Assembly: GCA_965220485.1 (NCBI GenBank)
Contig: OZ244832.1
Location: 1,674,882-1,738,881 of the forward strand
From: Candidatus Aldehydirespirator sp.
GTDB lineage: Bacteria; Actinomycetota; Acidimicrobiia; Acidimicrobiales; Aldehydirespiratoraceae
Length of the DNA stretch: 64,000 nt
Direction: 5' to 3'
In this document: one piece after another, positions 23,154-64,000 of the stretch
Position numbering within the stretch: position 1 is the first letter of the stretch
How the letters are laid out: every line of letters begins with the position of its first letter
Position numbers and translations under genes: made by a program
The notes under the pieces: model-generated
Database searches by the model: none
Told to the model about the DNA's origin: nothing
The model's input: only the letters and a program-made list of their open reading frames with translations

Positions 23154-23252
23154 GAGGCCGAGCGAGTAGGCCGCGGTTGACGAGGATTCTTGAATGGCAC
23201 TGAGCGAGGCCGTGGCCCGAGCGGCCCGTGAGCGCAGCGAACAAGAGCGGGA
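23154..23252 (+). repeat. Intergenic repeat family copy F
   Basis: GAGGCCGAGCGAGTAGG...GAGGCCGTGGCCCGAGCGGCCCGTGAGCGCAGCGAACAAGAGCGGGA, lying between two minus-strand genes. Confidence 0.9.
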
Positions 23253-23299
23253 GATGCCACGCTGCGCCGCGAGGCGGTCACACCTACCCGCGCTGTCTC

Positions 23300-47631: not shown

Positions 47632-48869
47632 CGACCGGCCTGGTCGAGTCCGACCGTCACCGTGATGTCGACCACGTCAGCCGCGGCCTCTCCCAACTCG
47701 ATGAGGGCCATGTCGACGCCGAGTTGGATGGCGATGCAGTTGGTTCTGAAGTCGTTCACGAGTTCTTCGCGATGGTAGTAGAAAAGGGTGGCCTCAGCGC
47801 CGAACTCGTCGGCATTGCCGATTTCGGTCACAACCCCTCCGGCCGCGATGATGTCGTCGACGAGAGAGTCCCGGACCGCAGGGTCGCCAGCGCCATCGAG
47901 CAGTTTGACCCGGGGTCGCAGGAAGGACTCGGGCTGCCGAGGCCGGGGCACCAACTCCAGGGTCTCGTCCCGGAGCCATGACTCATCGCCGCACGACCGC
48001 CCCTCGTCGCCAGGCAGGTCGGCGAGCTCGTAGCGAGGAGGCGAGGCGGGATCAAACACCAGGGACTGCAGAGGAGGTACCTCCACCACTGCGGTTCCTG
48101 CTCCCAGAACCTGCAGGAATGACGACAACGGCGACGAGGGCGGCGGGACGGCGGCAGCCGGGGCGGCGGCGCGGCTGATGACCCCGAGCCACGACTCCCA
48201 CATGGCCCGCTGGCGCTGCACCCGGTTGACGTCGGCCTCGTTAGCGTTCCGTAGGGCGTACACCGCGGCGGCGTCGGCCGCGGAGAGTTCGTAGCGCCCG
48301 GACTCGTACACCACCCGCGGCGCGCCATCGGGACCTACCTCCAAGAGGTCGTCCGCCAGCAGGTAAGGCAGAGGCGCGGCCGTACTCATGCCGTGGGCCA
48401 GGGACTCCGTGGTCGTTTCGACCACGTCGTCGAACCCGATCCCGAACAGGACCTCGGCGACAGGCTCGACTGCGTCGGGGCCCCCGCGGGCGTACACATC
48501 CGAGATGAGCTCGCCCTCCCTCCCCCCGATACCGGGCGCGACCAACAGATCGGCCGGCAGCAGCACGACGCCGCCGCCCGCGTCGATGCCGGTGCGGGCG
48601 ATGAATGCGACACCGGTCAGCTCGCCGTTGTGGGTATGGAGCGAGAGCAGCGTAGGCGTCACCCCCACGAACTCAAGGTATCCGGGCTCGTCGGGCGACA
48701 GAACGATGCGTTCCTCGACGCTGTCCACCGTGGTGTTGAGAACGGCGCGACCGCCCGCGAGGGCCAGCAGAAGTACCGCGATCCCTGAAGCCACGACGAC
48801 GCCCGGATAGACGAACCGCCAGAAGTAGTGAGCGCGGGGCGCGGGCCGGCGACGCCCGAACAGCGTCAT
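47628..48869 (-). CDS. Membrane-anchored LytR_C-domain-containing protein
   Basis: N-terminal TM helix. The C-terminal VKLLDGAGDPAVRDSLVDDIIAAGGVVTEIGNADEF...TLFYY resembles a LytR C-terminal domain. Position nadD-X-rsfS as in other Actinomycetota. Confidence 0.5.
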   Translation of the reverse strand: MTLFGRRRPAPRAHYFWRFVYPGVVVASGIAVLLLALAGGRAVLNTTVDSVEERIVLSPDEPGYLEFVGVTPTLLSLHTHNGELTGVAFIARTGIDAGGGVVLLPADLLVAPGIGGREGELISDVYARGGPDAVEPVAEVLFGIGFDDVVETTTESLAHGMSTAAPLPYLLADDLLEVGPDGAPRVVYESGRYELSAADAAAVYALRNANEADVNRVQRQRAMWESWLGVISRAAAPAAAVPPPSSPLSSFLQVLGAGTAVVEVPPLQSLVFDPASPPRYELADLPGDEGRSCGDESWLRDETLELVPRPRQPESFLRPRVKLLDGAGDPAVRDSLVDDIIAAGGVVTEIGNADEFGAEATLFYYHREELVNDFRTNCIAIQLGVDMALIELGEAAADVVDITVTVGLDQAGR

Positions 48870-49468
48870 CGACCGGACCCGTACAGGCCCTTGGACCTCA
48901 CAAGGTCGGCCACCGCCCGGGGGGCGAGCGCCTCGACCGGGCGGCCGTCAGCGAAGCGGGCCCGGACGTCGCACGACGAGATGTCCAGCGCGGGGACCTC
49001 CACCACCACCGCAGGCCAGCCCTCGGGGGGGCGCCCGCCGGACCGTCCCGCCCTCTCCACCACGACCGTGGTGGACAGCTCCCGGAGCTCGGCGGGGCGC
49101 TTCCAGGTGTCGAGCCCCTGGGCGGTGTCCGAACCCACGATGAGCATCAGCTCGGCGCCGGGATGCTGCCAGCGCAGCTCCTGCAGGGTGTCGGCCATGT
49201 AGCTCTCGCCGCCGCGGTCGACCTCGAGGGCGCTCGCCTGCAGCCCTTCGAGACCGCTGACGGCGGCCCGCACCATCTCCAATCGCAGGGGGGCCGGCGT
49301 CACCGGATGCAGCACAGATTTCTGCCACGGATCATTGGCCACGACCAACAGCACCACCGCGAGCCTCAGACGGTGGCGCACCTCCAGTGCCGCCGCGAGG
49401 TGCCCGAAATGCGGCGGATCGAAGGTCCCTCCCAGCACGCCGATGCGGGAGGTGTTCCGTCGCTGCAC
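48866..49468 (-). CDS. nadD: Nicotinate-nucleotide adenylyltransferase NadD
   Basis: IGVLGGTFDPPHFGHL (the (H/T)xGH motif) and the C-terminal ISS motif (LDISSCDVR). Confidence 0.9.
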   Translation of the reverse strand: MQRRNTSRIGVLGGTFDPPHFGHLAAALEVRHRLRLAVVLLVVANDPWQKSVLHPVTPAPLRLEMVRAAVSGLEGLQASALEVDRGGESYMADTLQELRWQHPGAELMLIVGSDTAQGLDTWKRPAELRELSTTVVVERAGRSGGRPPEGWPAVVVEVPALDISSCDVRARFADGRPVEALAPRAVADLVRSKGLYGSGR

Positions 49469-49568
49469 CCTGAAAGTCTATGATCAGGTCAGGCGTTGCG
49501 CCGAGGACGCTGCGAAGGTGCGCGGCAAGGACGTGTGACGTATTTCACAGCCTGCGCCACCGCAGGCC

Positions 49569-49597
49569 TTGACTTGCTGGGAACAAATGCGTAGTCT
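49569..49597 (+). promoter_or_regulatory. Candidate sigma-70-type promoter (-35 TTGACT, 17-bp spacer, -10 TAGTCT) for the sigma factor gene
   Basis: Read directly. Lies ~125 nt upstream of ATG 49724 in a locally less GC-rich stretch. Confidence 0.35.
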
Positions 49598-49723
49598 ATA
49601 TTGGTTCGTCTGGGCTGGAGTAGCGCACTTGGAGGGTGTGCGCCCGGCACCAAGTCTTCCCCCACATAGAAAGCGATAAGGTCGCCCTGCCACCGCGAGC
49701 GGGCCCGGTCAGGTGAGTGAGAC

Positions 49724-50569
49724 ATGAGTGACTCAGTAGGACAGTACCTCAACGAGATCGGTGCAGTGGCCCTGCTCAACGCCCAAGAGGAGCGCGAGCT
49801 GTCACAGGCCATCGAGCGCGGTGTCGAGGCCCGCCTCCGCAAGGAGCAGGGCGAGAAGGGCCGTGAAATTGACAAGGCGATCCGCGAGGCCACCGCGGCC
49901 AAGGACCGCTTCATCCGGGCCAACCTGCGCCTGGTCGTGAGCGTGGCTCGGCGCTATCCCCTTCCCCCGGGCATGGAGTTGCTCGACCTGATCCAGGAGG
50001 GGAACCTGGGCCTCGAGCACGCGGTCGACAAGTTCGACTGGCGCAAGGGCTTCAAGTTCTCGACCTACGCGACTTTCTGGATCCGCCAGTCCATCGGGCG
50101 GGCCCTCGACCAGAAGGCGAGCCTGGTGCGACTGCCCGGCGACAGGTCGGCCAGTCTGCGGGCCGCGCTGCGGCAGGTGTCCGGCGACGGCGACGAGTTG
50201 GATGACGACCATGCCCGGCTGCACCGGCTCACCACGCCGACCTCGCTCGACCGCACCATCGGCGACGACGACAGCAACGAGTTGATCGACCTTCTCCCCG
50301 ACTCCAACCCCGGGCCCGAGCTCGAGGTGATGGCCAAGGCCGAGGAGGAGATGGTGACCGGACTGCTCGACATCCTCGAGCCCCGGGCCAAGTACGCCGT
50401 CGAGCAGCGCTTCGGACTCTCCGACGGCATCAAGCGCTCCTACCGCGAGGTGGGCGAGGAGCTGGGCGTCACCGCCGAGGCGGCTCGGCGTCTGGTGAAG
50501 CGCGCCATCAATGCCGTGCGCGAGCACGCCGAGGAGCTGAGTCTGGCCGAGTCGGTCGACGCGGCCTAA
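49724..50569 (+). CDS. RNA polymerase sigma-70 family factor (group 2-like; regions 2-4, no region 1.1)
   Basis: FIRANLRLVVSVARRY (2.1/2.2), DLIQEGNLGLEHAVDKFD, FSTYATFWIRQSI (2.4), and the region 4 HTH SYREVGEELGVTAEAARRLVKRA. Confidence 0.88.
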   Translation: MSDSVGQYLNEIGAVALLNAQEERELSQAIERGVEARLRKEQGEKGREIDKAIREATAAKDRFIRANLRLVVSVARRYPLPPGMELLDLIQEGNLGLEHAVDKFDWRKGFKFSTYATFWIRQSIGRALDQKASLVRLPGDRSASLRAALRQVSGDGDELDDDHARLHRLTTPTSLDRTIGDDDSNELIDLLPDSNPGPELEVMAKAEEEMVTGLLDILEPRAKYAVEQRFGLSDGIKRSYREVGEELGVTAEAARRLVKRAINAVREHAEELSLAESVDAA

Positions 50570-50575
50570 ATTTCC

Positions 50576-51952
50576 ATGTCCGCCGGAGACCTGACCCTGT
50601 TCGCCGGCGGAAGCGGTTGGTCGCCTTCGTCCTGGAGGGCCAAGCCTGCGCGGCATCAGCCGGCTTGGCCCGACCAGGCCGAACTCGAGCAGGCAACCAA
50701 GTCCCTGCGCGATCTGCCTCCGCTGGTGTTCGCGGGCGAGGCCCGCTCGCTCACCGGCCTGCTGGGCCGGGTCGCCAACGGCGAGGCGTTCCTGCTGCAG
50801 GCGGGCGACTGCGCGGAGTCCTTCGACTCCTCCGCGAACTCGATCCGCGACAAGCTGCGGGTGATCCTGCAGATGGCCATCGTGCTGACCTACTCGGGAG
50901 GCGTGCCCCTGGTGAAGGTGGGCCGTATCGCGGGGCAGTTCGCCAAGCCCCGCTCCAAGCCCACCGAGACCATCGGAGACGTGGAGCTCACGTCGTTCCT
51001 GGGCCACATGGTGAACGACATCGGCTTCAGCGAGGCGGAGCGGCTGCCCGACCCCGGGCGGCTGCTGACCGCGTACCACCGGGCCGCATCCACGCTGAAC
51101 CTGCTGCGGGCCTTCACCCGGGGCGGCTATGCCGACCTGTCGCAGGTGTCGAGCTGGAATAGGGAGTTCGTTGCCACCTCTCCGGCGGGCCAGCGCTACT
51201 CGCGGATGGCCGACGAGATCGACCGGGCCCTCCGTTTCATGACCTCGTGCGGCGTGACCACCGCCAACACCCCGCAACTCCACGAAGTGGAGCTCTACAC
51301 CAGCCACGAGGCGCTAGTGCTGGACTACGAGGAGGCGATGACCCGCGAGGACTCGATCACCGGGGACACCTACGACTGCTCCGCCCACATGCTGTGGGTA
51401 GGCGAGCGCACCCGGCAGATGGACGGCGCCCACGTTGAGTTCCTGAGGGGCGTGCACAACCCGCTCGGCTGCAAGATCGGGCCCACCGCCACCGCGGACG
51501 AGGTGGTCGCCTTGTGCGAGTTGCTCAACCCGCAGCGGGTGCCGGGCCGGCTCACCTTCATCACCAGGATGGGCGCCGACGACGTGGAGACACTGCTGCC
51601 CCCGCTGCTGCGGGCGGTGCGGGACTCTCAGCACCCCGTGGCGTGGGCGTGCGACCCGATGCACGGCAACACCTACACCTCGGAGTCGGGGCGCAAGACC
51701 CGGCATTTCGATGACGTGCTGGCCGAGATCAGCGGATTCTTCGCCGCCCACACCTCCTGCGGGACCTGGCCCGGCGGCGTTCATGTGGAGCTCACCGGAG
51801 ACCCCGTCACCGAGTGCGTGGGCGGTGCCGACGACATCAGCCACGAGGATCTGGAACAGGCCTTCGAGACGCTGTGCGATCCCCGCCTCAACGGCCGCCA
51901 GTCGGTGGATCTCGCCTTCCGAGTGGCCGAGATGCTCTCCGACCGCAGCTGA
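50576..51952 (+). CDS. Class II 3-deoxy-7-phosphoheptulonate (DAHP) synthase
   Basis: WRAKPARHQPAWPD...PPLVFAGEARSL...LLQAGDCAESF and the C-terminal ...WACDPMHGNT...GGVHVELTG are class II (AroA-II) hallmarks. Confidence 0.9.
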   Translation: MSAGDLTLFAGGSGWSPSSWRAKPARHQPAWPDQAELEQATKSLRDLPPLVFAGEARSLTGLLGRVANGEAFLLQAGDCAESFDSSANSIRDKLRVILQMAIVLTYSGGVPLVKVGRIAGQFAKPRSKPTETIGDVELTSFLGHMVNDIGFSEAERLPDPGRLLTAYHRAASTLNLLRAFTRGGYADLSQVSSWNREFVATSPAGQRYSRMADEIDRALRFMTSCGVTTANTPQLHEVELYTSHEALVLDYEEAMTREDSITGDTYDCSAHMLWVGERTRQMDGAHVEFLRGVHNPLGCKIGPTATADEVVALCELLNPQRVPGRLTFITRMGADDVETLLPPLLRAVRDSQHPVAWACDPMHGNTYTSESGRKTRHFDDVLAEISGFFAAHTSCGTWPGGVHVELTGDPVTECVGGADDISHEDLEQAFETLCDPRLNGRQSVDLAFRVAEMLSDRS

Positions 51953-52207
51953 GGATCATCAGCGGACAGACCTGTCTCTGGACGGCCTCTCCACGGAGCC
52001 GATGGCAGCCCCCGCGCCCCGCCCCGGAGGGTGCGCCTGACCACCGGCCCTGCCGCGGGCCGCCGCTCCAGCGCCGTCCCCTGTCCGTCATGTCGGCGGG
52101 GACCCGAAAGCCGGAGCCGAGCTGCCCGGCCTAAACGAAGCACGAACAGATCGTCCCCGTGCGGGTCTGTCCTACGTGGCAGGATACGACTTGAGACTGC
52201 CGCCGCA

Positions 52208-54937
52208 ATGGAGGTATCCGTGGACAGCGCTTGGAAGTGGCCCGGCTCCAGATGGTGGCGCGTCGACCTTCACGCGCACTCACCGGCGTCCCACGATTTC
52301 CAGACTGGCGTGACTGCGGCTGCCGATGCAGCTCACCGGTGGATGGAGTCCGCACGCGACGCCGGCCTCCACGCGGTCGCCGTGACAGACCACAATTCGT
52401 CGCGATTCGTGCCCGAGCTACAGCGGGCCGCCTCCGAGGTGGCCAATGCCCCGGTGCTCTTCCCCGGCGTAGAGCTCACCACCGGTGACGGATCCCATCT
52501 CCTGCTCATCGTCGACCCGGGCGCCGGAGAGGAGAACATCGATGATCTGTTGTCCCGAATGGAGATTCCGGTGGAAGAGCGCGGCCAGACGAACGCGCGC
52601 ACGTCTCAGAGCGTCGAGGCGATCCTGGAGCGCTGCGATGATCAGACGCTTGTAATCGCGGCGCACGTCAATCAACCAGCTGGGCTGCTGCAACATACGG
52701 GCCAGCAACGGATTGCAGAACTCCGGCATCCGAGACTTGCAGCAGCGGAGATTCACCCCGATACCGACTTCGACGAGTCGTGGCTCGACGGCAGCAAGGC
52801 CGAGATAGGGCGGGAGATCCCTCAGATATGGGCTTCGGACAGCCACTGCTTCGACGACCTCGGCACGCGCTTCACGTGGGTGAAGATGACAGAACCCACA
52901 CTCGAAGGATTGCGACTGGCCCTCTCTGATGGCGACGATTCTCTCAAGCCTGCCCGGAGGGAGGACTCGGATAATCCCAATGCACATGCCGAGATGGCTA
53001 TAGAGAAGATCACGGTATACGACACCAAGCACATAGGTCGCCGGTCGCCGACCGAAGTCCGCTTCAATCCATGGATGAATGCCATCATCGGGGGACGCGG
53101 CACAGGAAAGTCGACTCTGCTCGACCTGTTCCGAAAGTCGATGAGACGGGACGGGGAGCTTGATAAAGCGGGAATAGGTCAGGAAGGATCGCTGCGGGGT
53201 CTCTTCGACAGCCGCATGCGTGTGCCGACAACTCGGTCCGACAGTGGTTTGCTGACCGGGGAGTCCCGCGTGGAGGTGGTCTATCGGAAGGATGGTGACA
53301 GGTTTCTTCTCTCGTGGAGCCAGGATGGGAGCGCTCAGCCGATCGCTCGACTGAGCAATGGTGACTCAAGCGCGGAGAAGGGCAATATCTCGGAACGATT
53401 CCCCGTGCGGATTTACAGCCAGAAGCAGCTGTTCGCCCTGGCCCAGAATCCGGATGCGCTCCTCGCGGTTCTTGACGACGCCCAAGAAGTTGACGGTGCC
53501 GACACCAGCCGAGAATTGCAGCGGTTGGAGGGCCGCTATCTCGCTTTGCGTGCGGAGGCTCGACAGGCTCTAACGCACGCGCGCGAGCTGCCGGATCGAG
53601 AGGCGTCGCTGGTCGATGTCCAGCGGAAGCTGGATCTCCTCCAGCAGGGCGGCCATGCAGAGATTCTCCGGCTCTATCGAAATCGTCGCCGGACTGATGG
53701 CATGTGGAAGGCGGTGCAGGCAGCATCTGAGCAAGGACTGGACGCCGTCGGTGAAGCGGTCGGCGAGTTGGCAGTGTCTGACTTGAATCTGCCAACGGAC
53801 GGCGACGATGCCACACAAGCGCTTCAACGTGCACACCAATCGCTGCATCAACTGATCGAGGGCTTCAGGAGCGAGTTGCTCGACAGCATCGAAGTGGTCC
53901 GCAGACGACTGGCTGAGGTGTTGCGAGGCGCGGACGCCAGCCATTGGGACGCCGCCGTTGATGCCAGCGAGGAAGCGTACCAGAACACGGTCTCCCAACT
54001 CGAAGAAGAGGGCATCGCAGACCCGGAGGAGTATGGAGAGCTAGTTGAGAGAGCGAGAAGGCTGGAAGCAGAGATAGAGAATCTCGGAACGGGTGCACGG
54101 AGAGCGCGCCGGCTTGAGCGGGAGGCCGACGCTGTGCTGGCCGAGTACCGGGAGGCACGGAGCCGGCTCAGCGTCAAACGGCAGGACTTCGCGGGTCGCG
54201 CTTCGGGCGTCACGCTCCGTGTCGAGGTAAGCAAGTTTGCCAAACACTCGGATCTAGCCGAGAGCCTCGAGCACATCCTCGGAATCGAAGCATTCGGTGA
54301 GGATCGGAAGTTGATCGCCGAGCGAATCAGACCGCAGGAAGACGGCGAGTGGGACTGGGGATCTCTGGATGGCGTCGTTGCCGAGATGCGGGCGTTTCAG
54401 TCGGGGGAGACCGACTCATGGGATACCAGAGATGCTCGGTTCGCGCCCCGGCTGAGGGGTCTCCCCGCGGAGCGGATCGATCGCTTGGCTCTCTACCTTC
54501 CCCAAGACATTCTTCAGGTTGACTTCCAGAGCGGAGATTTCGCTCCATGGCGACCAATAGCGCAGGGATCGCCGGGGCAGCAGACTGCGGCTCTCTTGGC
54601 GTTCGTGCTGGGTTTCGGGTCTGAACCCATCGTGTTGGACCAGCCCGAGGACGACTTGGACAGCACGCTGATATATGAACTGCTGGTTAGACGCTTCCGC
54701 GAAACCAAGCCAGCGAGGCAGCTGATCCTCGTGACTCACAACCCGAATATCGTGGTACACGGCGACGCGGAATACGTCCTCTCGCTGGAAGTCAAGCATT
54801 CGCTAACCGTTGTCAGTCGCGAGGGCGGGCTTCAGGAACAGGATGTGAGAGAAGAGATCTGTCGTGTGATGGAGGGCGGCAGGGAAGCGTTCGAGAGCCG
54901 CTACCACCGGATCATGCCGTTGAAGGGAGTCAAGTGA
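52208..54937 (+). CDS. PHP-domain phosphoesterase fused to an SMC/ABC-type coiled-coil ATPase (Ppl-like defence-type protein)
   Basis: PHP motifs RVDLHAHSPAS, VAVTDHN, GVELTT and AAHVN. Walker A IIGGRGTGKSTL. A long E/R/L/A-rich helical region. Signature-like GSPGQQ, Walker B VLDQPEDDLD, and VTHNPN. ATG 52208 chosen inside track ORF 52031..54937. Confidence 0.8.
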   Translation: MEVSVDSAWKWPGSRWWRVDLHAHSPASHDFQTGVTAAADAAHRWMESARDAGLHAVAVTDHNSSRFVPELQRAASEVANAPVLFPGVELTTGDGSHLLLIVDPGAGEENIDDLLSRMEIPVEERGQTNARTSQSVEAILERCDDQTLVIAAHVNQPAGLLQHTGQQRIAELRHPRLAAAEIHPDTDFDESWLDGSKAEIGREIPQIWASDSHCFDDLGTRFTWVKMTEPTLEGLRLALSDGDDSLKPARREDSDNPNAHAEMAIEKITVYDTKHIGRRSPTEVRFNPWMNAIIGGRGTGKSTLLDLFRKSMRRDGELDKAGIGQEGSLRGLFDSRMRVPTTRSDSGLLTGESRVEVVYRKDGDRFLLSWSQDGSAQPIARLSNGDSSAEKGNISERFPVRIYSQKQLFALAQNPDALLAVLDDAQEVDGADTSRELQRLEGRYLALRAEARQALTHARELPDREASLVDVQRKLDLLQQGGHAEILRLYRNRRRTDGMWKAVQAASEQGLDAVGEAVGELAVSDLNLPTDGDDATQALQRAHQSLHQLIEGFRSELLDSIEVVRRRLAEVLRGADASHWDAAVDASEEAYQNTVSQLEEEGIADPEEYGELVERARRLEAEIENLGTGARRARRLEREADAVLAEYREARSRLSVKRQDFAGRASGVTLRVEVSKFAKHSDLAESLEHILGIEAFGEDRKLIAERIRPQEDGEWDWGSLDGVVAEMRAFQSGETDSWDTRDARFAPRLRGLPAERIDRLALYLPQDILQVDFQSGDFAPWRPIAQGSPGQQTAALLAFVLGFGSEPIVLDQPEDDLDSTLIYELLVRRFRETKPARQLILVTHNPNIVVHGDAEYVLSLEVKHSLTVVSREGGLQEQDVREEICRVMEGGREAFESRYHRIMPLKGVK

Positions 54938-56175
54938 CAACGCCGAGCGATGAGCTATCAAGGCGGATTCGACTCGGCGAAGACTCCACTCTGGAACTGA
55001 AGCGAATACTGCTGGCCGGAAAGCGGGTGACTGGGCCAGACCGGGGTCGTTTCGCAGACGAGATGGCGAGCATGGCCAACGGCTCGGGCGGGACCGTCGT
55101 GTTGGGGGTCGATGACGAGACCCACGACGTGCTAGGCATCCCGCTTGACTCTCTGGATGTCGTCGAAACTTGGGTGCGCGAGATTTGCAACGACTCGATT
55201 ACTCCACCGCTGGACGCGACGATAAGGAAGTTGGAGATCCGGGGATCGTCCGGCGACCTCCTTGCTGTCATCCGTGTCGATGTCCCGCGAAGCCTGTTCG
55301 TCCACAAGAGCCCCGGCGGATACTTCAGAAGAATAGGCAGCTCCAAGCGGGAGATGTCACCGGAGTTCCTCGCGAGGATGTTTCAAGAGCGCAGTCAGAG
55401 CAGGCTGATCCGCTTCGACGAGTCCATCGTTCCGGGCACAGAGCCAACGGACCTCGATGAGCGGCTCATCGCACGGTTCTTGCCGCGGCCGCAGATACCA
55501 GCAGGCACCTATCTGCACAAGCTTCGGATCGCCGCCGAGGACGACGACGGCATCCTCCGTTTGACAGTCGCTGGTGTCCTCATGTGTGCTCGCGAACCCG
55601 CCAGGTGGTTGCCGCACGCGCAGATCCAAGCGGTCAGCTACGCCGGCGAGCGCAGCGATGTGAACTATCAGATCGACGCTCGGAACGTGAGCGGGCCGCT
55701 GGATTCCCAAGTAGTGGAAGCACTGCATTTCGTGAAACGCAATATGAGGATGAGTGCCAGGAAAGCCGTGGCCCGCGCCGAGCGTCCCCAGTTCAGTGAG
55801 AGAGCTGTATTCGAGGCCCTGGTCAATGCCGTCGCACACAGGGACTACTCCATGGCCGGCGCACGGGTCAGGCTCCACATGTTCCACGATCGTCTCGAGT
55901 TGTACGTGCCCGGCGACCTGGCGAACACACTGACGACCGACAGTATTCACCTGCGCCAGTACAGCCGCAATGAACTGATCGTCTCCCTGCTCGCCCGTTG
56001 CGAGCTGCCGGGATCAGCCGAGCTTGACCGGACTCGCATGATGGAACGACGAGGGGACGGGGTTCCGATCATTCTCAACGAGAGCCGTGAGTTGTCGGGA
56101 CGCCTGCCGGAGTACAGCCTCGTCGATGACAGCGAACTTCGGTTGATCATCTGGGGGGCTGCTGCCAACGACTAG
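54934..56175 (+). CDS. Schlafen/AlbA_2 (divergent AAA) domain + HATPase_c_4 C-terminal domain protein
   Basis: N-terminal GEDSTLELKR...FADEMASMANGSGGTVVLGVDD (AlbA_2 pattern). C-terminal EALVNAVAHRDYS...RVRLHMFHDRLELYVPG (HATPase_c_4 pattern). GTG 54934 overlaps the upstream TGA (GTGA) and has an AAGGGAG SD. Confidence 0.75.
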   Translation: MTTPSDELSRRIRLGEDSTLELKRILLAGKRVTGPDRGRFADEMASMANGSGGTVVLGVDDETHDVLGIPLDSLDVVETWVREICNDSITPPLDATIRKLEIRGSSGDLLAVIRVDVPRSLFVHKSPGGYFRRIGSSKREMSPEFLARMFQERSQSRLIRFDESIVPGTEPTDLDERLIARFLPRPQIPAGTYLHKLRIAAEDDDGILRLTVAGVLMCAREPARWLPHAQIQAVSYAGERSDVNYQIDARNVSGPLDSQVVEALHFVKRNMRMSARKAVARAERPQFSERAVFEALVNAVAHRDYSMAGARVRLHMFHDRLELYVPGDLANTLTTDSIHLRQYSRNELIVSLLARCELPGSAELDRTRMMERRGDGVPIILNESRELSGRLPEYSLVDDSELRLIIWGAAAND

Positions 56176-56297
56176 GCGGCGTGCGGCGACAGTGAGCGCG
56201 GTCACGGAAGAATGTCGTGGGTCCCGCAGCGGTGCCACCGGATGTGGACCATTCCGGGCCGCATAGGAGAACCAAGCGAGAATAGAGGTGATGCGCC

Positions 56298-56633
56298 ATG
56301 CCAAATGCGAATGACTACCGGGGGCTGCACAACGAGGTGCTCGCCCGACCCGGTGCCGCCGAGCGTCTTGCGACCCTGCGCAGCGAGACCCTCGCCGAGA
56401 TCGGTCTCCACGCTTTGCGTCGGACCCTTTACCGTTCTCAGGCCGACCTGGCTGCGGAACTCGGTATCAGCCAGTCCGCGGTCTCACAACTCGAGCGGGG
56501 TGATGATGTGAAGGTGTCCACTCTCCGCAGCTACGTGCAGGGGCTGGGGGCGCGTCTGCGGATTGTGGCCGTCTTCGACGACGGCGAGGACGAGACGGCC
56601 ATACCGATACGCATCGGCCCGGAAGTGGCGTAG
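56298..56633 (+). CDS. XRE-family helix-turn-helix protein
   Basis: LRRTLYRSQADLAAELGISQSAVSQLERGDDVKVSTLRSYVQGLG is a canonical Cro/C1-type HTH. Confidence 0.8.
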   Translation: MPNANDYRGLHNEVLARPGAAERLATLRSETLAEIGLHALRRTLYRSQADLAAELGISQSAVSQLERGDDVKVSTLRSYVQGLGARLRIVAVFDDGEDETAIPIRIGPEVA

Positions 56634-56879
56634 GCAAGCAGAGCGTCTCAGACATCCAAGGCAGCAGTTCTGTGTGCAGTTTTCCGCCAATGCGACGGGT
56701 TTCTCTACACAGAATGCCGGGCCGTCAGGCCAGGCGGTTTACGAAGGCCTCCAGCTGGCGCAGGTTGCGCGCCTCGAACACTCCGTCGCAGTGGGGGGCG
56801 TACTCCCCCACTATCGAGTCGCCGGTGTCCCAGTAGCTGCGAGGCTCGGGGTTGAGCCAGTACACGTGACGGGCCTTCG

Positions 56880-57548
56880 CCGGCTTCAGCGAAGCCGAAC
56901 GGCTGCCCGACCCGCGCCGCTTGCTGACCGCGTACCACCGGGCCGCGTCCACCCTCAACCTGCTGAGAGCGTTCACCCGGGGCGGCTACGCCGACCTGTC
57001 ACGGGTGGCCAGCTGGAACCGGGAGTTCGTGGCCACCTCGCCCGCGGGCCGGCGCTACGCCCGCATAGCCGAGGAGATCGACCGGGCTCTGGAGCCTCCA
57101 TGGGTGGAGGAAGACGAAGACGGGCGCTACGCCCGCATAGCCGAGGAGATCGACCGGGCCCTGCGGTTCATGACGGCGTGCGGAGTGACCACCGCCAACA
57201 CCCCGCAACTGCACGAGGTCGAGTTCTACACCAGCCACGAGGCTCTGGTCCTAGACTACGAAGCGGCGCTCACCCGCGAGAACTCGACCACCGGCGACTG
57301 GTACGACTGCTCGGCCCACATGCTGTGGATCGGCGAGCACACCCGCCAGCTCGACGGCGCCCACGTGGAGTTCCTTCGGGGGGTGTGCAACCCGCTGGGC
57401 TGCAAGATCGGTCCCACCGCCACCGCCGACGAGGTGGTCGCACTGTGCGAGCTGCTCAACCCGCAGCGCGTTCCCGGCCGGCTCACGTTCATCACCGGGA
57501 TGGGCGCCGGAAACGTGGAGACGCTGTTGCCGCCGCTGCTGCGGGCCG
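56880..57548 (+). pseudogene. Internal fragment of a second, diverged class II DAHP synthase gene (lacks both ends; carries a 72-bp internal duplication)
   Basis: GFSEAERLPDP..LLTAYHRAASTLNLLRAFTRGGYADLS...TLLPPLLRA is collinear with residues of the intact gene at about 51022-51618. The RYARIAEEIDRAL segment is duplicated (57051-57087 and 57122-57158). Homology stops abruptly on both sides. Confidence 0.8.
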
Positions 57549-57719
57549 AGTCGGCCAGACCCTCGCGGGCCACGGGCCAACTTGTCAAGTTCGTGCCTTG
57601 AGATGTCTGGAAGAAACTCATACAGATATTTTTTATAGAATTTTGTCATTTATGTCCGTTGGTGCTGCTAGCGTGTGGGCGACTGACACGACGCCTGAAA
57701 GAGCACACCAGGAGATGCC

Positions 57720-58988
57720 GTGGGAACGCTCGTCGAGAGATTCTGGGACGAACACGACCGAGTCTCGCGGCCCGCGACCGACAACGACCCGCACCGGCAG
57801 GTGTTCCGCGCCTTCGTGCCGCATCCCATCGCGGGATGGACGCCGACGTTCGGCGAGGCCACCTGGAGGCTCGTCGACGCCGCCGAGAGCGCAGTGCGGG
57901 CACTGGGGGCCGACCACCCTTCGGGTTCCGCGGCGCCGGCAGAGTGGCTGCTCCGGCGGGCCGAGAGCGCGGCGTCGAGCACAATCGAGGGAGTCCGCCC
58001 GTCAGCACGCCGGCTGGCCCGGGCCGAGGCTCGGCTGTCTCTGTGGCAGGAGCAGCCACGCCCCCAGGACCTCGAGGCTCTCCGCAACATCTCAGCCACC
58101 GAAGTCGCCCTCCGTATCGGCTCCACCCCCGGTCCCGTGACGATGCAGGACGTCTGCGCCATACACCGGGCGCTGATGGGTGACGAAGATCCCATCGCCG
58201 GCCAGATCCGTACCGCCCAGAACTGGATCGGCTCGGGGTTCAGGTCGCCCCCCCTGGACGCGCAGTATGTTCCCCCGCCACCGGACGCGGTGCAGGACCT
58301 GATGAACGACCTGGTGGAGTGCATCAACGCGCCGGTGTCGGGACCGCTGGTGCACGCCGCCATCGTGCACGCCCAGTTCGAGGCGATCCATCCCTTCGCC
58401 GACGGCAACGGGCGAACCGGACGGGCTCTGATCCACCTGATGCTGCGCCGCCGCGGGCTGACCGGCTCGGGCACGCTTCCCGTCAGCTCGTCGCTGGCCC
58501 GGCGCAGAGACGACTACATCCGAGCGCTCAACAGCGCCTGCACGGTGTGCGGCGCCGACGATCCGCTGCGGCCGGCCGCGGCCACAGAGTGGATCGGGCT
58601 TCTGTGCAGCGCCGCCGTCGAGGCCTCCTACTTCGCCCGTCGCATCATCGACCACGTGGAGTCGATCCTCCGGCTGTGGCTGCGCACGATGCGGTCCATG
58701 GGGGTGCGGCGCTCCAACGCCGCGGTGCGTCTCATCGAGTTGCTCCCGTCGCGCCCCGTGCTCAACGCCGACGGCGCGGCCGAGATGCTGGACGCCGATC
58801 CCCGGACCGCCCGCCGCAGCCTCGAATTGCTCACCACCGCGGGGATACTCGTCCAGCGCAGCGCCGGGAGACGAAACCGCGTATTCGAGGCGGCCGCCAT
58901 CACGGATGCCTTCTCTGCGCTCGCGTCGATCAACATCGGCGACAGCGACATACACCTGCCGCCCCTGCCCGATCCCGACGATGGCTGA
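57720..58988 (+). CDS. Fic/DOC family protein (class with N-terminal inhibitory helix)
   Basis: Fic motif HPFADGNGRTGRAL. Upstream SSTIEG matches the (S/T)xxxE(G/N) auto-inhibition motif. AGGAGA SD. An AT-rich promoter-like patch lies at 57611-57655. Confidence 0.88.
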   Translation: MGTLVERFWDEHDRVSRPATDNDPHRQVFRAFVPHPIAGWTPTFGEATWRLVDAAESAVRALGADHPSGSAAPAEWLLRRAESAASSTIEGVRPSARRLARAEARLSLWQEQPRPQDLEALRNISATEVALRIGSTPGPVTMQDVCAIHRALMGDEDPIAGQIRTAQNWIGSGFRSPPLDAQYVPPPPDAVQDLMNDLVECINAPVSGPLVHAAIVHAQFEAIHPFADGNGRTGRALIHLMLRRRGLTGSGTLPVSSSLARRRDDYIRALNSACTVCGADDPLRPAAATEWIGLLCSAAVEASYFARRIIDHVESILRLWLRTMRSMGVRRSNAAVRLIELLPSRPVLNADGAAEMLDADPRTARRSLELLTTAGILVQRSAGRRNRVFEAAAITDAFSALASINIGDSDIHLPPLPDPDDG

Positions 58989-59042
58989 ACCGAACCGTCA
59001 GGCGGGCCGCTGGGGGCGTCGCGTGGCGCGTCCTCGTGCGGC

Positions 59043-62000
59043 CTATGAGGCGTGGTTACCGAGGCGGGTGAGGACTCGGCTCAAGAATGCGGCCATTTGG
59101 GCTCTGGTGACGTGTCGTGGGCCGCAGTACAGCGGTGGGTCGGTGTTGCAACCGGTTGTGATGTCGGCGGCGCTGATGGCCTCGACAGCATTGTAGGCGT
59201 AGTGGTCGGTGTCGATGTCTTCGAAGGTGGGGGCGTCGTTGTCGGCATCGGGCAGTTTGAAGGCTCGTTGCAGGAACAGCGCCATCTGTGACCTGGTGAC
59301 GGGATCATCGGGGCAGTAGTCGGTGCCGCGTGGGTTGCATCCGACGCTGATGCCGAGTCTGGCGATGCGTTCGATGTAGGGCGCGTACCAGGCTTCTAGG
59401 TCCACATCGTCGAAGCGTCCGGCGAGCTTGTCAACGGGGTCGAGGTCTAGGGCTCTGACCAGGAACACGGCCATTTGGGCCCTGGTGATGGGCTGGGTGG
59501 GCCGGTAGCTGCCGTCGGGGTAGCCGGTGGTGACTCCGAGTCTGGCGATGTGCTCGACGTAGGGCGCGTGCCAGTCGTCTGGGGCGACGTCGCTGAACGA
59601 CACCGGCTCGGGCTCGGGTTCGGGCGCGCCTCCGCCGCCGCCTCCTCCTCCGCTGCGCCGACGGGGCGGCGCGACGACGGCTTTGGGGGTGGTGCGGTTC
59701 GAGGGTGCGGAGGCGGCTTTGAGCCCGTCGGATCTCTCAGCGGTGACCGTGAAGGTGTAGACGCGGTCGTTGACGAGCCCGGTGACGGTGCAGGTCGTGT
59801 CGGCCGCGGCGGCGGTGCAGGTGCGCTGTCCGGGCGATGAGGTCGCGGCGTAGCCGGTGATGGTGATCGTGCTGGCGCTGGTGTCGGGAGCGGTCCAGGT
59901 GACGGTGACCTCTCCGGCGCCGGGCGGGTCGGCGGGTTCGGCGCGCACTGCGGTGGGGGCGGTGACCCACACCTCGGCGGTGGGCTGCGACGGCTCGGAG
60001 GCGCCGCGGGCGTTGCGGGCGGTGACAGTGAGAGTGTGCGCCCCGTTGGCGAGGCCCTCGATGCGGCACCATCTCTGCGCGGCGGAGGCGGTGCAGGTGC
60101 GGCCCGAGGGCGCGGACGTGGCGGTGTAGCCGACGATGGCGGCGCCGCCGTCGCTGGCGGGCGCGGCCCATTGCACCAGCGCCCAGCCACCGCCGGGGGT
60201 GGCCTGCGTGATCGCGGGCACCCCCGGCGCGGCAGCCGTCACCGACGCGGGACGTGACGGCTGCGACGCGGTCGATGGTCCCGCGTTGTTGTTGGCGATC
60301 ACAATGAAGGTGTAGGCGACTCCCGGGGCGAGGCCTGTGATGGTGCATGAGGTCTCGGTGGCCGCCGCGGTGCATCGGCCCGGGCCGGGCGAGGCGCTCA
60401 CCTCGTAGCTTGTGACCGGGTCCGGTGCCTGCAGCCGGGCCGCGGCCCGGTCCTCGCGCCCGGCGTATACGAGGACGCCGCTGCCGGGGGGCGCGCCGGC
60501 GGATGCTGTGGGCACCGTCCATGCGATGGTGGCGGTGTCGTCCTCAACGGTTGCGGTGACGCCGCTGGGAGCGTCGGGCGCGCCGATCGGGGCCTGCGGG
60601 GACACGGACGCGGCGGGGCTGGAAGCCGGCGAGACAAGCCCGTAGGAGTTCTCCGCAACCACGGTGATCTCATAGGTGATGCCGTTGGTGAGCCCGGTGA
60701 TGGTGCAGGCTGTCCCGCCGGCCGCGGTGCATGTGTGAGGGTCCTCGGTCTGACCGACCGCGGCTGCGGTGGCGGTGTAGCCGACGATGATGGCGTCGTC
60801 AGCGCCGGCGTCTGCTGGCGCGGCCCAAGACACGCGGGCGTCGCCGTTGCCGCCGGTCGCTCTCACGTTGTGGGGCGCGCCCGGCGCGTCGGCCGGCACG
60901 ACGGCGTTCACCGGCGAAGACGCCGGCGACGTCCTGCGCGCGCCGTTCTCGGCTGTGACCGTCACCTCATAGGCGCGGCCCCTGGCCAAACCGGTGATGG
61001 TGCAGTCCGTCGCGCTGAACGCGGCACAGGCCTGCCCGCCCGGCTCTGCGGTGGCCTCATAGCTCACGATGCCGGGTCCTCCGGTGTCGGCGGGCTCGGT
61101 CCACGACACCTCGAGGGACCCGCCGCCGACGGACGTCGCAGTGACGCCGCCAGGCGCGTCGGGCGCGCCCGCGGGCGTCACCTCGAGCGACGGTGCCGAC
61201 GCCGCAGACGCGCCGGCCTCGTTGCCGGCGGTCACCGTGAACATGTAGGAGGCACCGTTGGTCAGCCCGGTCACCGTGCACGCGGTGGCGGCGGCGTCAT
61301 CGGTGGTGCAGCTGTGCCCGCCGGGATCAGAGACGGCCTCATAGCCGCTGATCGCCGCGCCTCCGTCGTAGCCCGGAGCCCGCCACTCAATTCGCGACTG
61401 GCCGTCCTCGTACTCCGTGGCGGTCACCGACACCGGCGCGTCCGGCACCGTGCGCGGCGTCACCGGTCCCGCGGGCGCCGACGGCGGCGACGGCCCGGCG
61501 GCGTTGCTCGCAGTCACGGTCACCGTGTACGCCGTGCCGTTGTCGAGCCCGGTGATCGTGCAGGTCGTAGCGGCCGGGTCCGACGCGGTGCAGGTGAGCC
61601 CGCCGGGATCGGCGACCGCCTCATAGCCGGTGATCTCCGAGCCCCCGTCAGAAACAGGCACCCGCCACGACACCACCACCGACTCGTGTTCCGGCTCGAC
61701 GCTCACACGGCCCGGCGTGGCCGGCACAGCCTTGGGCACCACCGCCGCCGACGCCGCCGACGCCGCCGAGGACCCCGCCACGTTGCTCGCCGTCACCGTG
61801 AACGTGTAGGCGGTGCCGTTGGCCAGCCCGGTGACCGTGCAAGAAGCCACCGCCGCGTCGGCGCTGGTGCAGGACCGGCCCCCCGGAGACGCCGTCGCCC
61901 GATAGCCGGTCACATCAGAGCCCCCGTCGAAGCCAGGCGCCTGCCATGACACCAGCGCCAGCGCGTTGCCCGGAACCGCCGACACCGCCGTCGGAGCGTC

Positions 62001-64000
62001 CGGCACCGTGCGTGGCGTCACCTCCGCCGACGGCAGCGACGCCGCAGAAGACCCCGCAGAGTTCTGCGCCGTCACCGTGAACGTGTAGGCAGTGCCGTTG
62101 TCGAGCCCGATGACCATGCAAGAAGTCGCCCCCGACGTGGTGCACGTCGCCCCGCCCGGCGAGGCAGTCACCGTATAACCCGTGATCGCAGAACTCCCAG
62201 TGGACGAAGGCCACCGCCACGACACCACCACCGAACCGTCCCCAGCCCGAGCACTAACTCCGGTGGGCGCGCCAGGAACCGTCATCCCCGGCGACAGAGA
62301 AGTATCGACATCACCAAAAGACCGGTCCAAACTCCCGCCCGCACTCAAACGCACCACCGCAAAATCCGAATCAGTGTCATCGCCGTCGAAAGACTCCCCA
62401 GCCACAACGATCTTTCCGTCAGACTGCAACGCCACCTGCGCTTCGGGCTCGTCGCCGAAGCCGTAGTCAACGATTATCCCCGGGAAGGCGATACCGTTGG
62501 TGTCTAAGCCGGTGTCGAGACCGCCATCAGAGCTGTAGCGAACAACCGCGAGGCGCCCACCGGCCAAGAACTGGTGGCCATAGCCAGCTACGATGATCCT
62601 CCCGGTTGAGTCCAACACGACCGACGATGCATGGTCCCGACTGTCTTGGCCTTCGCCGCTGAAGTCGCCTGCTGCAATTAGATTCGTGGTGGTCTTGCCG
62701 TCGGTGTCGAAGCTGGTGTCCAAGCTGCCATTGGAGTTGTAGCGCACCACCGCGAAATCGCCGCCGTCACCGCTTCCGGCGACGACGATCTTGCCGTCGG
62801 ACTGCAGCGCGACGGCCGACGCTTCATCGATGCTGCTGGTGCCGATGTCTGTGGTGGTCTTGCCGTCAGTGTCGAAGCTCGTGTCCAAGCTGCCATTGGA
62901 GTTGTAGCGCACCACCACGAAATCGCCGCCGTCACCGCTTCCGGCGACGAAGCTGCGTCCGGCGACGACGATCTTGCCGTCCGATTGCAGCGCGACGGCC
63001 GACGCTTCATCGATGCTGCTGGTGCCGATGTCTGTGGTGGTCTTGCCGTCAGTGTCGAAGCTCGTGTCCAAGTTGCCATTGGAGTTGTAGCGCACCACCG
63101 CGAAATCGCTGCCGCTGGTTCCGGCGCCGAAGCTGCGTCCGGCGACGACGATCTTGCCGTCCGATTGCAGCGCGACGGCCGACGCTTCATCGATGCTGCT
63201 GGTGCCGATGTCTGTGGTGGTCTTGCCGTCAGTGTCGAAGCTCGTGTCCAAGCTGCCATTGGAGTTGTAGCGCACCACCGCGAAATCGCCGTCACCGCTT
63301 CCGGCGACGACGATCTTGCCGTCCGATTGCAGCGCAACAGAGAACGTATGGCTCGAATAACGTGACAGCAAGCTCGTGTCATACCCTGATGGGCTGTCAA
63401 GTTGCGTGGTCGTGATGCCGTCGGTGTCGAAGCTCGTGTCAAGGCTGCCATCGGAATCGTAGCGTGCAACCACGATGCCCAGCCCGAAGCCGGGCCGCAA
63501 ACCCCGGCTCGCACCAGCTACGACGATCTTGCCGTCGGACTGCAATGCGGCTGACCCCATGATGTCGAAGCTGTTGGTGCTGGCAGCCGTGATGACCTTG
63601 CCGTCGCTGTCAAACGCCGTGTCGAGGCTGCCGCTGGAGTTGTAGCGCACCACCGCAAAATCGTTGCCGCTGTATCCGGCGACGACGATCTTGCCGTCGG
63701 ACTGCAGCGCGACGGCTGACGCTTCATCGAAGCTGCTGGTGCCGATGTCTGTGGTGGTCTTGCCGTCGGTGTCGAAGCTCGTGTCAAGGCTGCCGTCAGT
63801 GTTGAAGCGAGCGGTAGCGAAGTCGTTGTTGCCTCCGAATGGTGTGGTTGTTCCTGCTATCACAAGCTTGCCGTCTGACTGCACGGCGACAGGCAGCGCA
63901 CTCTGGTCCATGTAGAAGTTCAGATCGGTGATGAGTTTGCCGTCGGTGTCGAAGCTGGTGTCGAGGCCACCGTTGGTGTTGTAGCGCACCACCGCGAAAT
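59043..64000 (-). CDS. Giant SLH-anchored surface protein, 5' end outside window: delta-60-type beta-propeller repeats, about 11 FN3 domains, Gly-rich linker, 3x SLH
   Basis: Repeats DGSLDTSFDTDGKTTTDIGTSS.DEASAVALQSDGKIVVAG..DFAVVRYNSNG have a ~60-aa period. FN3 blocks (P.AP..V.A....G...VSW..P...GGS.ITGY). G8 linker. C-terminal SLH-like triplet as in the 23300 gene. The frame is open to base 64000. Confidence 0.85.
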   Translation of the reverse strand, partial: FAVVRYNTNGGLDTSFDTDGKLITDLNFYMDQSALPVAVQSDGKLVIAGTTTPFGGNNDFATARFNTDGSLDTSFDTDGKTTTDIGTSSFDEASAVALQSDGKIVVAGYSGNDFAVVRYNSSGSLDTAFDSDGKVITAASTNSFDIMGSAALQSDGKIVVAGASRGLRPGFGLGIVVARYDSDGSLDTSFDTDGITTTQLDSPSGYDTSLLSRYSSHTFSVALQSDGKIVVAGSGDGDFAVVRYNSNGSLDTSFDTDGKTTTDIGTSSIDEASAVALQSDGKIVVAGRSFGAGTSGSDFAVVRYNSNGNLDTSFDTDGKTTTDIGTSSIDEASAVALQSDGKIVVAGRSFVAGSGDGGDFVVVRYNSNGSLDTSFDTDGKTTTDIGTSSIDEASAVALQSDGKIVVAGSGDGGDFAVVRYNSNGSLDTSFDTDGKTTTNLIAAGDFSGEGQDSRDHASSVVLDSTGRIIVAGYGHQFLAGGRLAVVRYSSDGGLDTGLDTNGIAFPGIIVDYGFGDEPEAQVALQSDGKIVVAGESFDGDDTDSDFAVVRLSAGGSLDRSFGDVDTSLSPGMTVPGAPTGVSARAGDGSVVVSWRWPSSTGSSAITGYTVTASPGGATCTTSGATSCMVIGLDNGTAYTFTVTAQNSAGSSAASLPSAEVTPRTVPDAPTAVSAVPGNALALVSWQAPGFDGGSDVTGYRATASPGGRSCTSADAAVASCTVTGLANGTAYTFTVTASNVAGSSAASAASAAVVPKAVPATPGRVSVEPEHESVVVSWRVPVSDGGSEITGYEAVADPGGLTCTASDPAATTCTITGLDNGTAYTVTVTASNAAGPSPPSAPAGPVTPRTVPDAPVSVTATEYEDGQSRIEWRAPGYDGGAAISGYEAVSDPGGHSCTTDDAAATACTVTGLTNGASYMFTVTAGNEAGASAASAPSLEVTPAGAPDAPGGVTATSVGGGSLEVSWTEPADTGGPGIVSYEATAEPGGQACAAFSATDCTITGLARGRAYEVTVTAENGARRTSPASSPVNAVVPADAPGAPHNVRATGGNGDARVSWAAPADAGADDAIIVGYTATAAAVGQTEDPHTCTAAGGTACTITGLTNGITYEITVVAENSYGLVSPASSPAASVSPQAPIGAPDAPSGVTATVEDDTATIAWTVPTASAGAPPGSGVLVYAGREDRAAARLQAPDPVTSYEVSASPGPGRCTAAATETSCTITGLAPGVAYTFIVIANNNAGPSTASQPSRPASVTAAAPGVPAITQATPGGGWALVQWAAPASDGGAAIVGYTATSAPSGRTCTASAAQRWCRIEGLANGAHTLTVTARNARGASEPSQPTAEVWVTAPTAVRAEPADPPGAGEVTVTWTAPDTSASTITITGYAATSSPGQRTCTAAAADTTCTVTGLVNDRVYTFTVTAERSDGLKAASAPSNRTTPKAVVAPPRRRSGGGGGGGGAPEPEPEPVSFSDVAPDDWHAPYVEHIARLGVTTGYPDGSYRPTQPITRAQMAVFLVRALDLDPVDKLAGRFDDVDLEAWYAPYIERIARLGISVGCNPRGTDYCPDDPVTRSQMALFLQRAFKLPDADNDAPTFEDIDTDHYAYNAVEAISAADITTGCNTDPPLYCGPRHVTRAQMAAFLSRVLTRLGNHAS

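Follow-up and report, generated by a model that had tools for sequence, protein, structure and literature searches.

A probable compound allele of two cargo cassettes at a core-gene hotspot in Candidatus Aldehydirespirator

Arrays of orphan genes at type VI secretion system (T6SS) effector-immunity loci and at Rhs and contact-dependent inhibition (CDI) loci have been attributed to homology-facilitated illegitimate recombination (HFIR) (PMC5361080). Here we analysed a 64,000-nucleotide stretch of DNA, hereafter the window, from Candidatus Aldehydirespirator sp. (contig OZ244832.1 of assembly GCA_965220485.1, positions 1,674,882 to 1,738,881), in which an intact gene for a class II DAHP synthase is followed by a mosaic of accessory genes (51953-59042) that includes a relic of a second DAHP synthase gene. 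As in the T6SS, Rhs and CDI arrays, the locus has a conserved upstream anchor, an illegitimate, non-homologous end, and a new module that stands ahead of an old one and its truncated remnant; this likeness in stacking implies that modules accumulate without an integrase. Unlike in those arrays, the anchor is a housekeeping biosynthetic gene rather than a structural or toxin gene, candidate anti-phage genes make up the stacked modules, and the remnant is the middle of the anchor gene, left after a further deletion, with the mechanism inferred from sequence only.

The locus also resembles hotspots and defence islands flanked by core genes, in that one core pair encloses varied cargo of deviant composition and in that two closely related loci (L019 and L092, described below) differ by presence and absence of cargo. 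It departs from the usual hotspots of this kind in the spacer of 3-9 nt between convergent stop codons and in the arrangement of two alleles in tandem, not one. A partial copy of the target on the far side of the insert is likewise found where integrases have placed islands at the 3′ ends of transfer RNA (tRNA) or protein genes, with duplication into attL and attR. Here, however, there is no integrase, att core repeat or tRNA, and the piece comes from inside the gene, has diverged from it by 14% and lies directly against a fragment of the opposite flanking gene. For the cargo, the closest described systems are Ppl of E. coli, a single-gene anti-phage system that is a PHP single-stranded DNA exonuclease/NTPase (PMC12904381), and the prokaryotic Schlafens (pSlfn), which are tRNase effectors and most commonly have a HisKinase-type fusion architecture (PMC13056530). 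A PHP-ATPase in the window matches the Ppl profile over its full length, and the neighbouring Schlafen has an Ex4ExK motif fused to a GHKL/HisKinase-type domain. Unlike E. coli Ppl, the PHP-ATPase is of the TrlF family and is always coupled to a Schlafen gene, and its function here is a prediction from sequence.

The locus adds one more case to a known phenomenon, in which cargo turns over at a hotspot between core genes and illegitimate recombination leaves a scar on one side, and it is unusually legible because an empty site and both parental alleles are available. We consider it probable that the window holds a compound allele of a chromosomal cargo hotspot and not an integrase-borne island, in which an allele with a Fic gene (allele B) was native and DNA of an allele with the Ppl-like and Schlafen genes (allele A) came in.

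We compared the window with 80 Acidimicrobiales loci (L001-L080) retrieved with the DAHP synthase protein, of which the nearest are labelled Ca. Aldehydirespirator and many come from sponge-derived metagenome-assembled genomes (MAGs), and with two contigs (L091 and L092) that carry the two other members of the 90% cluster of the window's Fic protein. The whole comparison covered ~90 loci and ~37 genus-level genomes, and the profiles were taken from Pfam, NCBIfam (TIGR01358, NF042955, TrlF_fam_ATP and MadC), PADLOC and Rfam. The conserved gene order was LytR (minus strand), NadD (minus), sigma (plus), DAHP synthase (plus), a convergent VWA/CoxE gene (minus) and a MoxR-type AAA gene. In at least 14 genus-level genomes the DAHP synthase and VWA stop codons were separated by only 3-9 nt, the site reading tga, then 3-9 nt, then TCAGGCCAGG (the VWA stop). 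This is the empty site that the initial annotation had proposed to look for in relatives, and the spacer between the two convergent stops is the true point of insertion. Besides these empty sites, the spacer held short inserts in 6 genomes and large, different inserts in at least 9. The cargo included Type ISP restriction-modification genes (L007, L022 and L003), an insertion sequence (IS) element with DUF4238 and a Fic remnant (L029), giant FN3/cadherin proteins (L001 and L014) and small genes (L004, L006 and L042). The ends of the cargo differed among genomes and had no sequence in common, and clean insertions lay in the spacer, not inside a gene. L019 is empty (11375-11378), whereas L092 (9798-12378) has a clean 2.6-kb insertion exactly between the DAHP synthase and VWA stops, comprising the Fic gene and a gene for a 321-aa SLH protein; the flanks of these near-conspecific loci are 94-98% identical on both sides. 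Because of the empty sites, the diverse cargo and this presence/absence polymorphism, we identify the spacer as a core-gene-flanked cargo hotspot, at which the same two core genes enclose different cargo or none.

Each of the two alleles in the window exists separately in relatives. Allele A is found alone in L002 and L093, in the order DAHP synthase, Ppl-like gene, Schlafen gene and full-length VWA gene, and L002 is collinear with window positions 47584-56190 in a single high-scoring segment pair of ~8.6 kb, and again with 56722-56881. Allele B is found alone in L091 and L092, in the order sigma, DAHP synthase (458 aa), Fic, a small open reading frame (ORF) or SLH gene, VWA, AAA and Aldedh. 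The window reads as allele A followed by allele B, joined head to tail. Allele A ends with a stub of the VWA/CoxE (MadC-like) gene, its final 50 codons (56725-56878, minus strand); this gene is the right core flank of the hotspot, here truncated, and a C-terminal remnant on the minus strand had already been suspected at this place. In more than 40 relatives the 3′ ends of full-length VWA genes are 90-94% identical to the remnant, which matches positions 445-490 of 498 in the MadC profile. The VWA homology always stops at 56877-56881, against every relative, so that 153 bp of the gene are kept, and no other VWA sequence was found in the 64-kb window. The VWA piece ends at 56878 and DAHP synthase sequence starts at 56881 (nt 447 of the gene); the 2 nt between them (GC, 56879-56880) are assignable to neither partner. 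The partners share no sequence at this illegitimate junction. An order in which the VWA piece precedes the DAHP synthase piece is the reverse of the native one, and is what a head-to-tail join of two alleles predicts.

Beyond the junction, allele B begins with a relic of a second, orthologous DAHP synthase gene, 666 bp long (56881-57546, plus strand), which corresponds to nt 447-1040 and codons ~150-347. The intact gene (50576-51952, plus strand) forms the left core flank of the hotspot and encodes 458 aa. Its product scored 668.6 bits against DAHP_synth_2 of Pfam (PF01474) and 686.1 bits against TIGR01358, above the equivalog cutoff of 614.7 and across profile positions 1-441 of 443, and it aligned over its full length with the solved class II enzymes 5UXM (E = 3e-165) and 2B7O. 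The initial annotation had described an intact class II enzyme ending at 51952 and a diverged copy of its middle part collinear with about 51022-51618, and nucleotide alignment bore out both. The relic aligned in two blocks, 56881-57090 with 51022-51231 (85% identity, E = 3e-66) and 57124-57546 with 51193-51615 (86% identity, E = 1e-145). It also contains a 72-bp in-frame insertion (57053-57124), which had been taken for a 72-bp internal duplication: the length is right, but only ~36-38 bp are a direct duplication and 36 bp are filler found nowhere else in the 64-kb window. With the insertion removed, nucleotide identity between the relic and the intact gene is 86.0% and amino-acid identity 89.3%. 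The two copies differ at 83 positions (20, 8 and 55 at the first, second and third codon positions), and 51 of the differing codons are synonymous and 21 are not. The synonymous divergence (dS) of 0.52, the non-synonymous divergence (dN) of 0.06 and their ratio of 0.115 show that nearly all of the divergence arose while both copies were functional genes.

The relic itself reads as a pseudogene fragment. It scored 278.6 bits against TIGR01358, below the cutoff of 614.7, and covers profile positions ~150-336 only, short of full-length membership. It lacks the motifs GDCAES, DPMHGN, HVELTG and CDPRLN, all four of which fall outside residues 150-347 in the alignment to the solved enzymes. From M. 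tuberculosis AroG, we take the Cys of GDCAES, the His of DPMHGN, the Glu of HVELTG and the Asp of CDPRLN to be the metal and substrate residues. For annotation, this explains a 226-aa 'DAHP synthase' ORF as a relic and not a second enzyme; no DAHP synthase copy other than the intact gene and the relic was found within the 64-kb window. A count of private amino-acid changes, made to date the pseudogenisation, gave 5 for the relic against 6 for the intact gene, with no resolvable signal of relaxed selection. Orthologues in L014, L015, L016, L017, L003 and L021 are 91-92% identical to the relic, compared with 86% for the resident gene, and in a neighbour-joining tree the relic and the resident gene fall in different clades. 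By this pattern the relic is an orthologue that derives from this locus in another lineage, and not a paralogue. Downstream of the relic, window positions 57548-58981 are 95.5% identical to L092 positions 9829-11262, and the DAHP synthase stop of L092 lies at 9799. Because the sequence after the relic continues as the DAHP-Fic spacer of L092 from 30 bp past the stop, the 3′ truncation is a simple deletion of ~365 bp, from ~nt 1041 of the gene to 30 bp past its stop, with 1-3 nt of microhomology. Both this deletion and the 72-bp insertion are private lesions of the relic, absent from every allele B relative.

Both cassettes have moved between species. The core genes LytR, NadD, sigma and DAHP synthase had dS values of 0.30-0.43 against L002, and the core genes gave 0.30-0.44 against L092. 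By contrast, dS against L002 was 0.15 for the Ppl-like gene (dN/dS 0.32) and 0.10 for the Schlafen gene, and dS against L092 was 0.12 for the Fic gene. Since the synonymous divergence of both cassettes from these relatives is far below that of the core flanks, both must have been exchanged between species. For the cargo genes, dN/dS ranges from 0.1 to 0.3, which indicates that selection maintains them. G+C content at third codon positions (GC3), a composition check that the initial annotation had called for, was 0.70-0.76 in the Ppl-like, Schlafen and XRE genes against 0.83-0.91 in core genes; the deviation extends to neither the relic (0.92) nor the Fic gene (0.87), which are host-like. The suspicion that the region downstream of DAHP synthase is accessory and mosaic, and carries the scar of an insertion or replacement, was well placed.

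Structures of the same kind were present in two other genomes. In L022, allele A is joined, 55 bp past the Schlafen gene, to a third allele that runs from ~nt 1150 of DAHP synthase onward; the third-allele segment is 91% identical to L003 over 2075 bp, and the DAHP synthase remnant (15648-15883) shares 93.6% identity with the gene of L022 itself. In L001, a fragment from within VWA (15412-15765) precedes a DAHP synthase 3′ remnant (16153-16250), which is 98.9% identical over 89 bp to the gene of L001 itself. We read L022 and L001 as independent scars of the same kind of allele stacking.

The route of recombination and the identity of the native allele we infer as follows. The lineage of the window would most likely first have carried allele B, with DAHP synthase, Fic, SLH protein and so on, and then have taken up allele A DNA comprising DAHP synthase, the Ppl-like PHP-ATPase, Schlafen, XRE and the 3′ end of VWA. 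One end of the incoming DNA would have recombined homologously in or upstream of the 5′ third of DAHP synthase, and the other end, 153 bp into VWA, would have joined illegitimately to the resident DAHP synthase gene at nt 447. The product would be an intact, probably chimeric DAHP synthase gene with a new defence cassette behind it, and the resident DAHP synthase from nt 447 on would have been shifted downstream, to remain as a non-functional relic at the head of the older Fic cassette. The relic would later have decayed through the ~365-bp deletion, which removed its 3′ end, and the 72-bp insertion. The join could have been made by HFIR of linear DNA, or the donor fragment could have circularised and then entered by a single crossover, which would give the same product; both routes have been demonstrated experimentally in bacteria (PMC3240628).

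That allele B was native is suggested by the left flank, whose nearest relative is L091, an allele B carrier. Across 24 relatives, the vector of flank identities correlated with that of the 5′ 446 nt of DAHP synthase (rho 0.57, p = 0.003) and with that of the relic (rho 0.43, p = 0.03), as against rho -0.03 for the middle and 0.20 for the 3′ part of the intact gene. This pattern suggests that the native gene survives as the relic, and that the intact gene received its nt ~447-1377 along with the Ppl-like/Schlafen cassette. A max-chi2 scan of the intact gene placed a breakpoint at ~nt 320-512 (p ~0.013 against L011, 0.07 against L002 and not significant against other references); the gene is possibly chimeric, with a native-looking 5′ third and a foreign-looking remainder. 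Several points weigh against this account. The statistics on direction are weak, in that the difference in flank congruence had a one-sided bootstrap p of ~0.05 with a 95% interval that includes 0, and in that the max-chi2 signal was significant against one reference only. Among the relatives, none was close enough to show the donor or the recipient before the event, and the XRE module had no counterpart in any allele A relative. The full-length VWA gene expected to the right of the giant gene that follows Fic would lie outside the window. The VWA-DAHP junction is supported by this one assembly only: no independent assembly of it was found, and a metagenome scan with a 21-mer spanning it returned 10 loci, all unrelated chance matches.

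The same anatomy would also arise in the opposite direction, with allele A native (intact DAHP synthase, Ppl-like, Schlafen, XRE and a full VWA gene) and allele B incoming (DAHP synthase from nt 447, Fic and the giant gene), anchored by homology on its right and joined illegitimately by its left end inside the resident VWA gene. The anatomy is symmetrical, so the evidence from the separate alleles fits equally, the Fic cassette likewise has a signature of recent transfer (dS 0.12 against L092), and the evidence that favours entry of allele A is only borderline. We nevertheless regard this direction as unlikely, given that the left-flank pattern matches the relic and the 5′ third of DAHP synthase and not the middle or 3′ part of the intact gene, that the nearest flank relative, L091, carries allele B, and that the Ppl-like, Schlafen and XRE genes are foreign in composition whereas the Fic gene and relic are host-like. 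A tandem duplication within one genome, from nt 447 of DAHP synthase to the 3′ end of VWA and followed by cargo swaps and gene conversion of one copy, would yield exactly such a VWA-then-DAHP junction. However, a dS of 0.52 with a dN/dS of 0.115 means that both copies were functional in separate lineages for nearly all of that time, and the relic is nearer to the genes of other species than to its neighbour. Two halves with wholly different cargo would moreover need several extra events, and none of the ~90 loci had two near-identical copies with identical cargo; we judge such a duplication very improbable.

The initial annotation had offered two origins for the scar, an integrative element that targets the DAHP synthase gene and recombination between two paralogues of one genome, and we now give almost no credence to either. 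The duplication of the DAHP synthase 3′ end beyond the cargo in L001 and L022 does look superficially like attL and attR. Around the island, however, the scan detected no tRNA or transfer-messenger RNA (tmRNA) and no match to Rfam families, and direct or inverted repeats of att type amounted to short, chance-level matches only. Every ORF in 51953-59042 was assigned (Ppl-like, Schlafen, XRE, VWA remnant, DAHP synthase relic and Fic) and none contains a recombinase domain, in line with the earlier report that no integrase or recombinase is left. In addition, the relic is the middle of the gene and not a duplicated 3′ end, cargo ends vary, and clean insertions lie in the spacer. Recombination between paralogues is at odds with relatives that have a single DAHP synthase gene at the locus, to which the relic is orthologous; it comes from the same locus in a different lineage and belongs to a different clade. 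It is just as improbable that the locus is an assembly artefact, that is, a contig that fuses allele A and allele B from two co-occurring strains. The contig is a chromosome assembled from a metagenome, the same sponge samples harbour related genomes with both alleles, and no independent assembly of the VWA-DAHP junction was found. But assemblers switch between strains at shared sequence, which would keep the order of DAHP synthase before VWA and would not produce a homology-free VWA-DAHP join; the private lesions of the relic occur in no allele B relative, and the independent MAGs L022 and L001 have analogous structures. We therefore retain the compound allele, with allele B native and allele A incoming, as the probable history of the locus.

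The cargo of allele A starts with a non-coding leader (51953-52207, plus strand) that is homologous to the same region of L002 and L022; the left edge of the cassette lies at ~51958/51959, immediately past the DAHP synthase stop codon, and its right edge at ~56190 in every comparison. Profile searches confirmed the PHP-ATPase, Schlafen, XRE and Fic genes that had been named from the sequence. The Ppl-like (TrlF-family) gene (52208-54937, plus strand; longest ORF from 52031) encodes a predicted PHP nuclease with an ABC/SMC-type ATPase. The protein, of 909-968 aa, matched Ppl of PADLOC over its full length (E = 1.4e-113) and scored 506 bits against TrlF_fam_ATP of NCBIfam (cutoff 350). It reached 468 bits against the Ppl_antiphage equivalog NF042955, for which the cutoff is 1000. 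In Pfam, the PHP match was weak (20 bits, below 26.4) and AAA_21 exceeded its threshold. By these profiles, the PHP-ATPase is Ppl-like and belongs to the TrlF family, outside the Ppl equivalog. In the first third of the gene, the PHP part (52208-53110), we observed a dS of 0.06 and a dN of 0.04 against L002, a ratio of ~0.67, compared with ~0.3 for the whole Ppl-like gene and 0.11 for the Schlafen gene. Selection on this N-terminal part may have been relaxed or diversifying, or the high ratio may stem from a local exchange in the very recent past.

The Schlafen gene (54934-56175, plus strand) overlaps the stop codon of the Ppl-like gene by 4 nt at its start and has an AlbA_2 and a HATPase_c_4 domain, which scored 54.9 bits (SLFN_AlbA_2, PF04326; cutoff 25.3) and 58.7 bits in Pfam. 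The sequence GEDSTLELK supplies the motif Ex4(E/D)xK with E16, E21 and K23. The gene product has the features of the pSlfn class, for which a tRNase role is predicted. The Ppl-like/Schlafen pair recurs in L002, L022, L023 and L093-L100 and is always translationally coupled. It is also present in unrelated genomes of the same sponge metagenomes, beside IS elements, an integrase or DUF1156/DUF499 defence genes, and one identical Schlafen protein is encoded, in varying gene contexts, by 13 contigs. The literature searched, including the texts of PMC12904381 and PMC13056530, yielded no account of the pair, and a search on TrlF yielded nothing relevant. The pair, which lies outside the original finding, is a candidate two-gene defence module and the more novel lead of the locus. 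Behind it stands a solitary gene of the XRE family with a helix-turn-helix domain (56298-56633, plus strand; HTH_3 of Pfam, E = 5e-9), within a module of ~56200-56660 that had no tblastn or blastn match in L001-L080. A Logan contig (L099) is 100% identical to 53262-56405, which confirms that Schlafen and XRE are adjacent.

In allele B, the relic is followed by the native DAHP-Fic intergenic region (57547-57719, plus strand), whose left edge is the junction of the ~365-bp deletion and which contains an AT-rich patch. This patch is the native upstream region of Fic and is 95.5% conserved with L092. The Fic gene (57720-58988, plus strand), the cargo of allele B, encodes a 422-aa protein that scored 79.8 bits against PF02661 of Pfam (cutoff 24) and matched SoFic of PADLOC (E = 1e-68); its score against the SoFic equivalog was 71 bits, below the cutoff of 550. 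The motif HxFx(D/E)GNGRxxR is present as HPFADGNGRTGR, and SSTIEG is a candidate auto-inhibitory motif. Motif and domain together mark a putative Fic/DOC AMPylase. Homologues at least 90% identical to it sit between DAHP synthase and VWA in L091 and L092. Next is a gene for a giant FN3/SLH surface protein (59043-63992, minus strand) of at least 1649 aa, with numerous FN3-like repeats and with SLH domains at the C terminus; the gene shows strong shifts in GC skew and reaches the end of the window. It had no syntenic counterpart in relatives within 10 kb of DAHP synthase and for this reason cannot serve to delimit the island on its right. After Fic, L092 carries a shorter SLH gene at the corresponding position, with 40% identity across the SLH region, and different giant surface-protein genes occupy the same hotspot position in L001 and L014; the giant gene of the window probably also belongs to the hotspot cargo. 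The island has its right end beyond the window and not at 59042, where it had been placed.

We also noted several short repeats. A REP/MITE-like (repetitive extragenic palindrome/miniature inverted-repeat transposable element) repeat of ~45 nt, with the core CCCGCTCTTGTTCGCTGCGCTCACGGGCCGCTCGGGCCACGGCCTCGC, is scattered through the window (5519-5705, 6559-6603, 10648-10714, 14876-15110, 17299-17357 and 23204-23268) and relatives (L002, 17185-17256; L005, 12898-12961). By eye, the reverse complement of this repeat is contained in an insert of ~100 bp at the DAHP/VWA spacer of L017; at the same spacer, L020 has a 149-bp insert. In L032, L012 and L018, short direct duplications of a motif from the VWA stop region (CTCAGGCCAG) flank or adjoin small inserts in the spacer. 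These stop-region duplications hint at small-scale duplication or insertion activity there. A second short repeat, at 10863-10969 of the window, is 92.5% identical over 107 bp to 11434-11540 in the hotspot cargo of L029. Two further candidates were discarded: an 11-mer that occurs both at the deletion junction and where the sigma gene ends, which we judged a chance match, and a target-site duplication (TCAG) at the ends of the Ppl cassette, which was dropped because other cargoes do not share it.

These results do not overturn current understanding, and the locus is an ordinary outcome of gene exchange between related species in a sponge-associated actinobacterium. It offers an unusually clear view, in nature, of defence cassettes that pass from one species to another and collect at a housekeeping-gene hotspot with no dedicated mobility gene, a view in which the illegitimate junction and the later decay events can also be read from the sequences, and it flags the Ppl-like/Schlafen pair as a candidate two-gene defence module. 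We put forward, tentatively and as a possibility we find somewhat doubtful, that the DAHP/VWA junction of Ca. Aldehydirespirator is a repeated, integrase-free site of tandem stacking (the window, L022 and L001 among ~37 genus-level genomes) and that the TrlF/Ppl-like and Schlafen/GHKL pair may be an anti-phage module of two genes that is so far uncharacterised and is spreading among unrelated symbionts of sponges. If stacking of this kind does recur, a lineage would gain a new defence cassette while retaining the old one, and its anchor gene would be rebuilt as a chimera each time.

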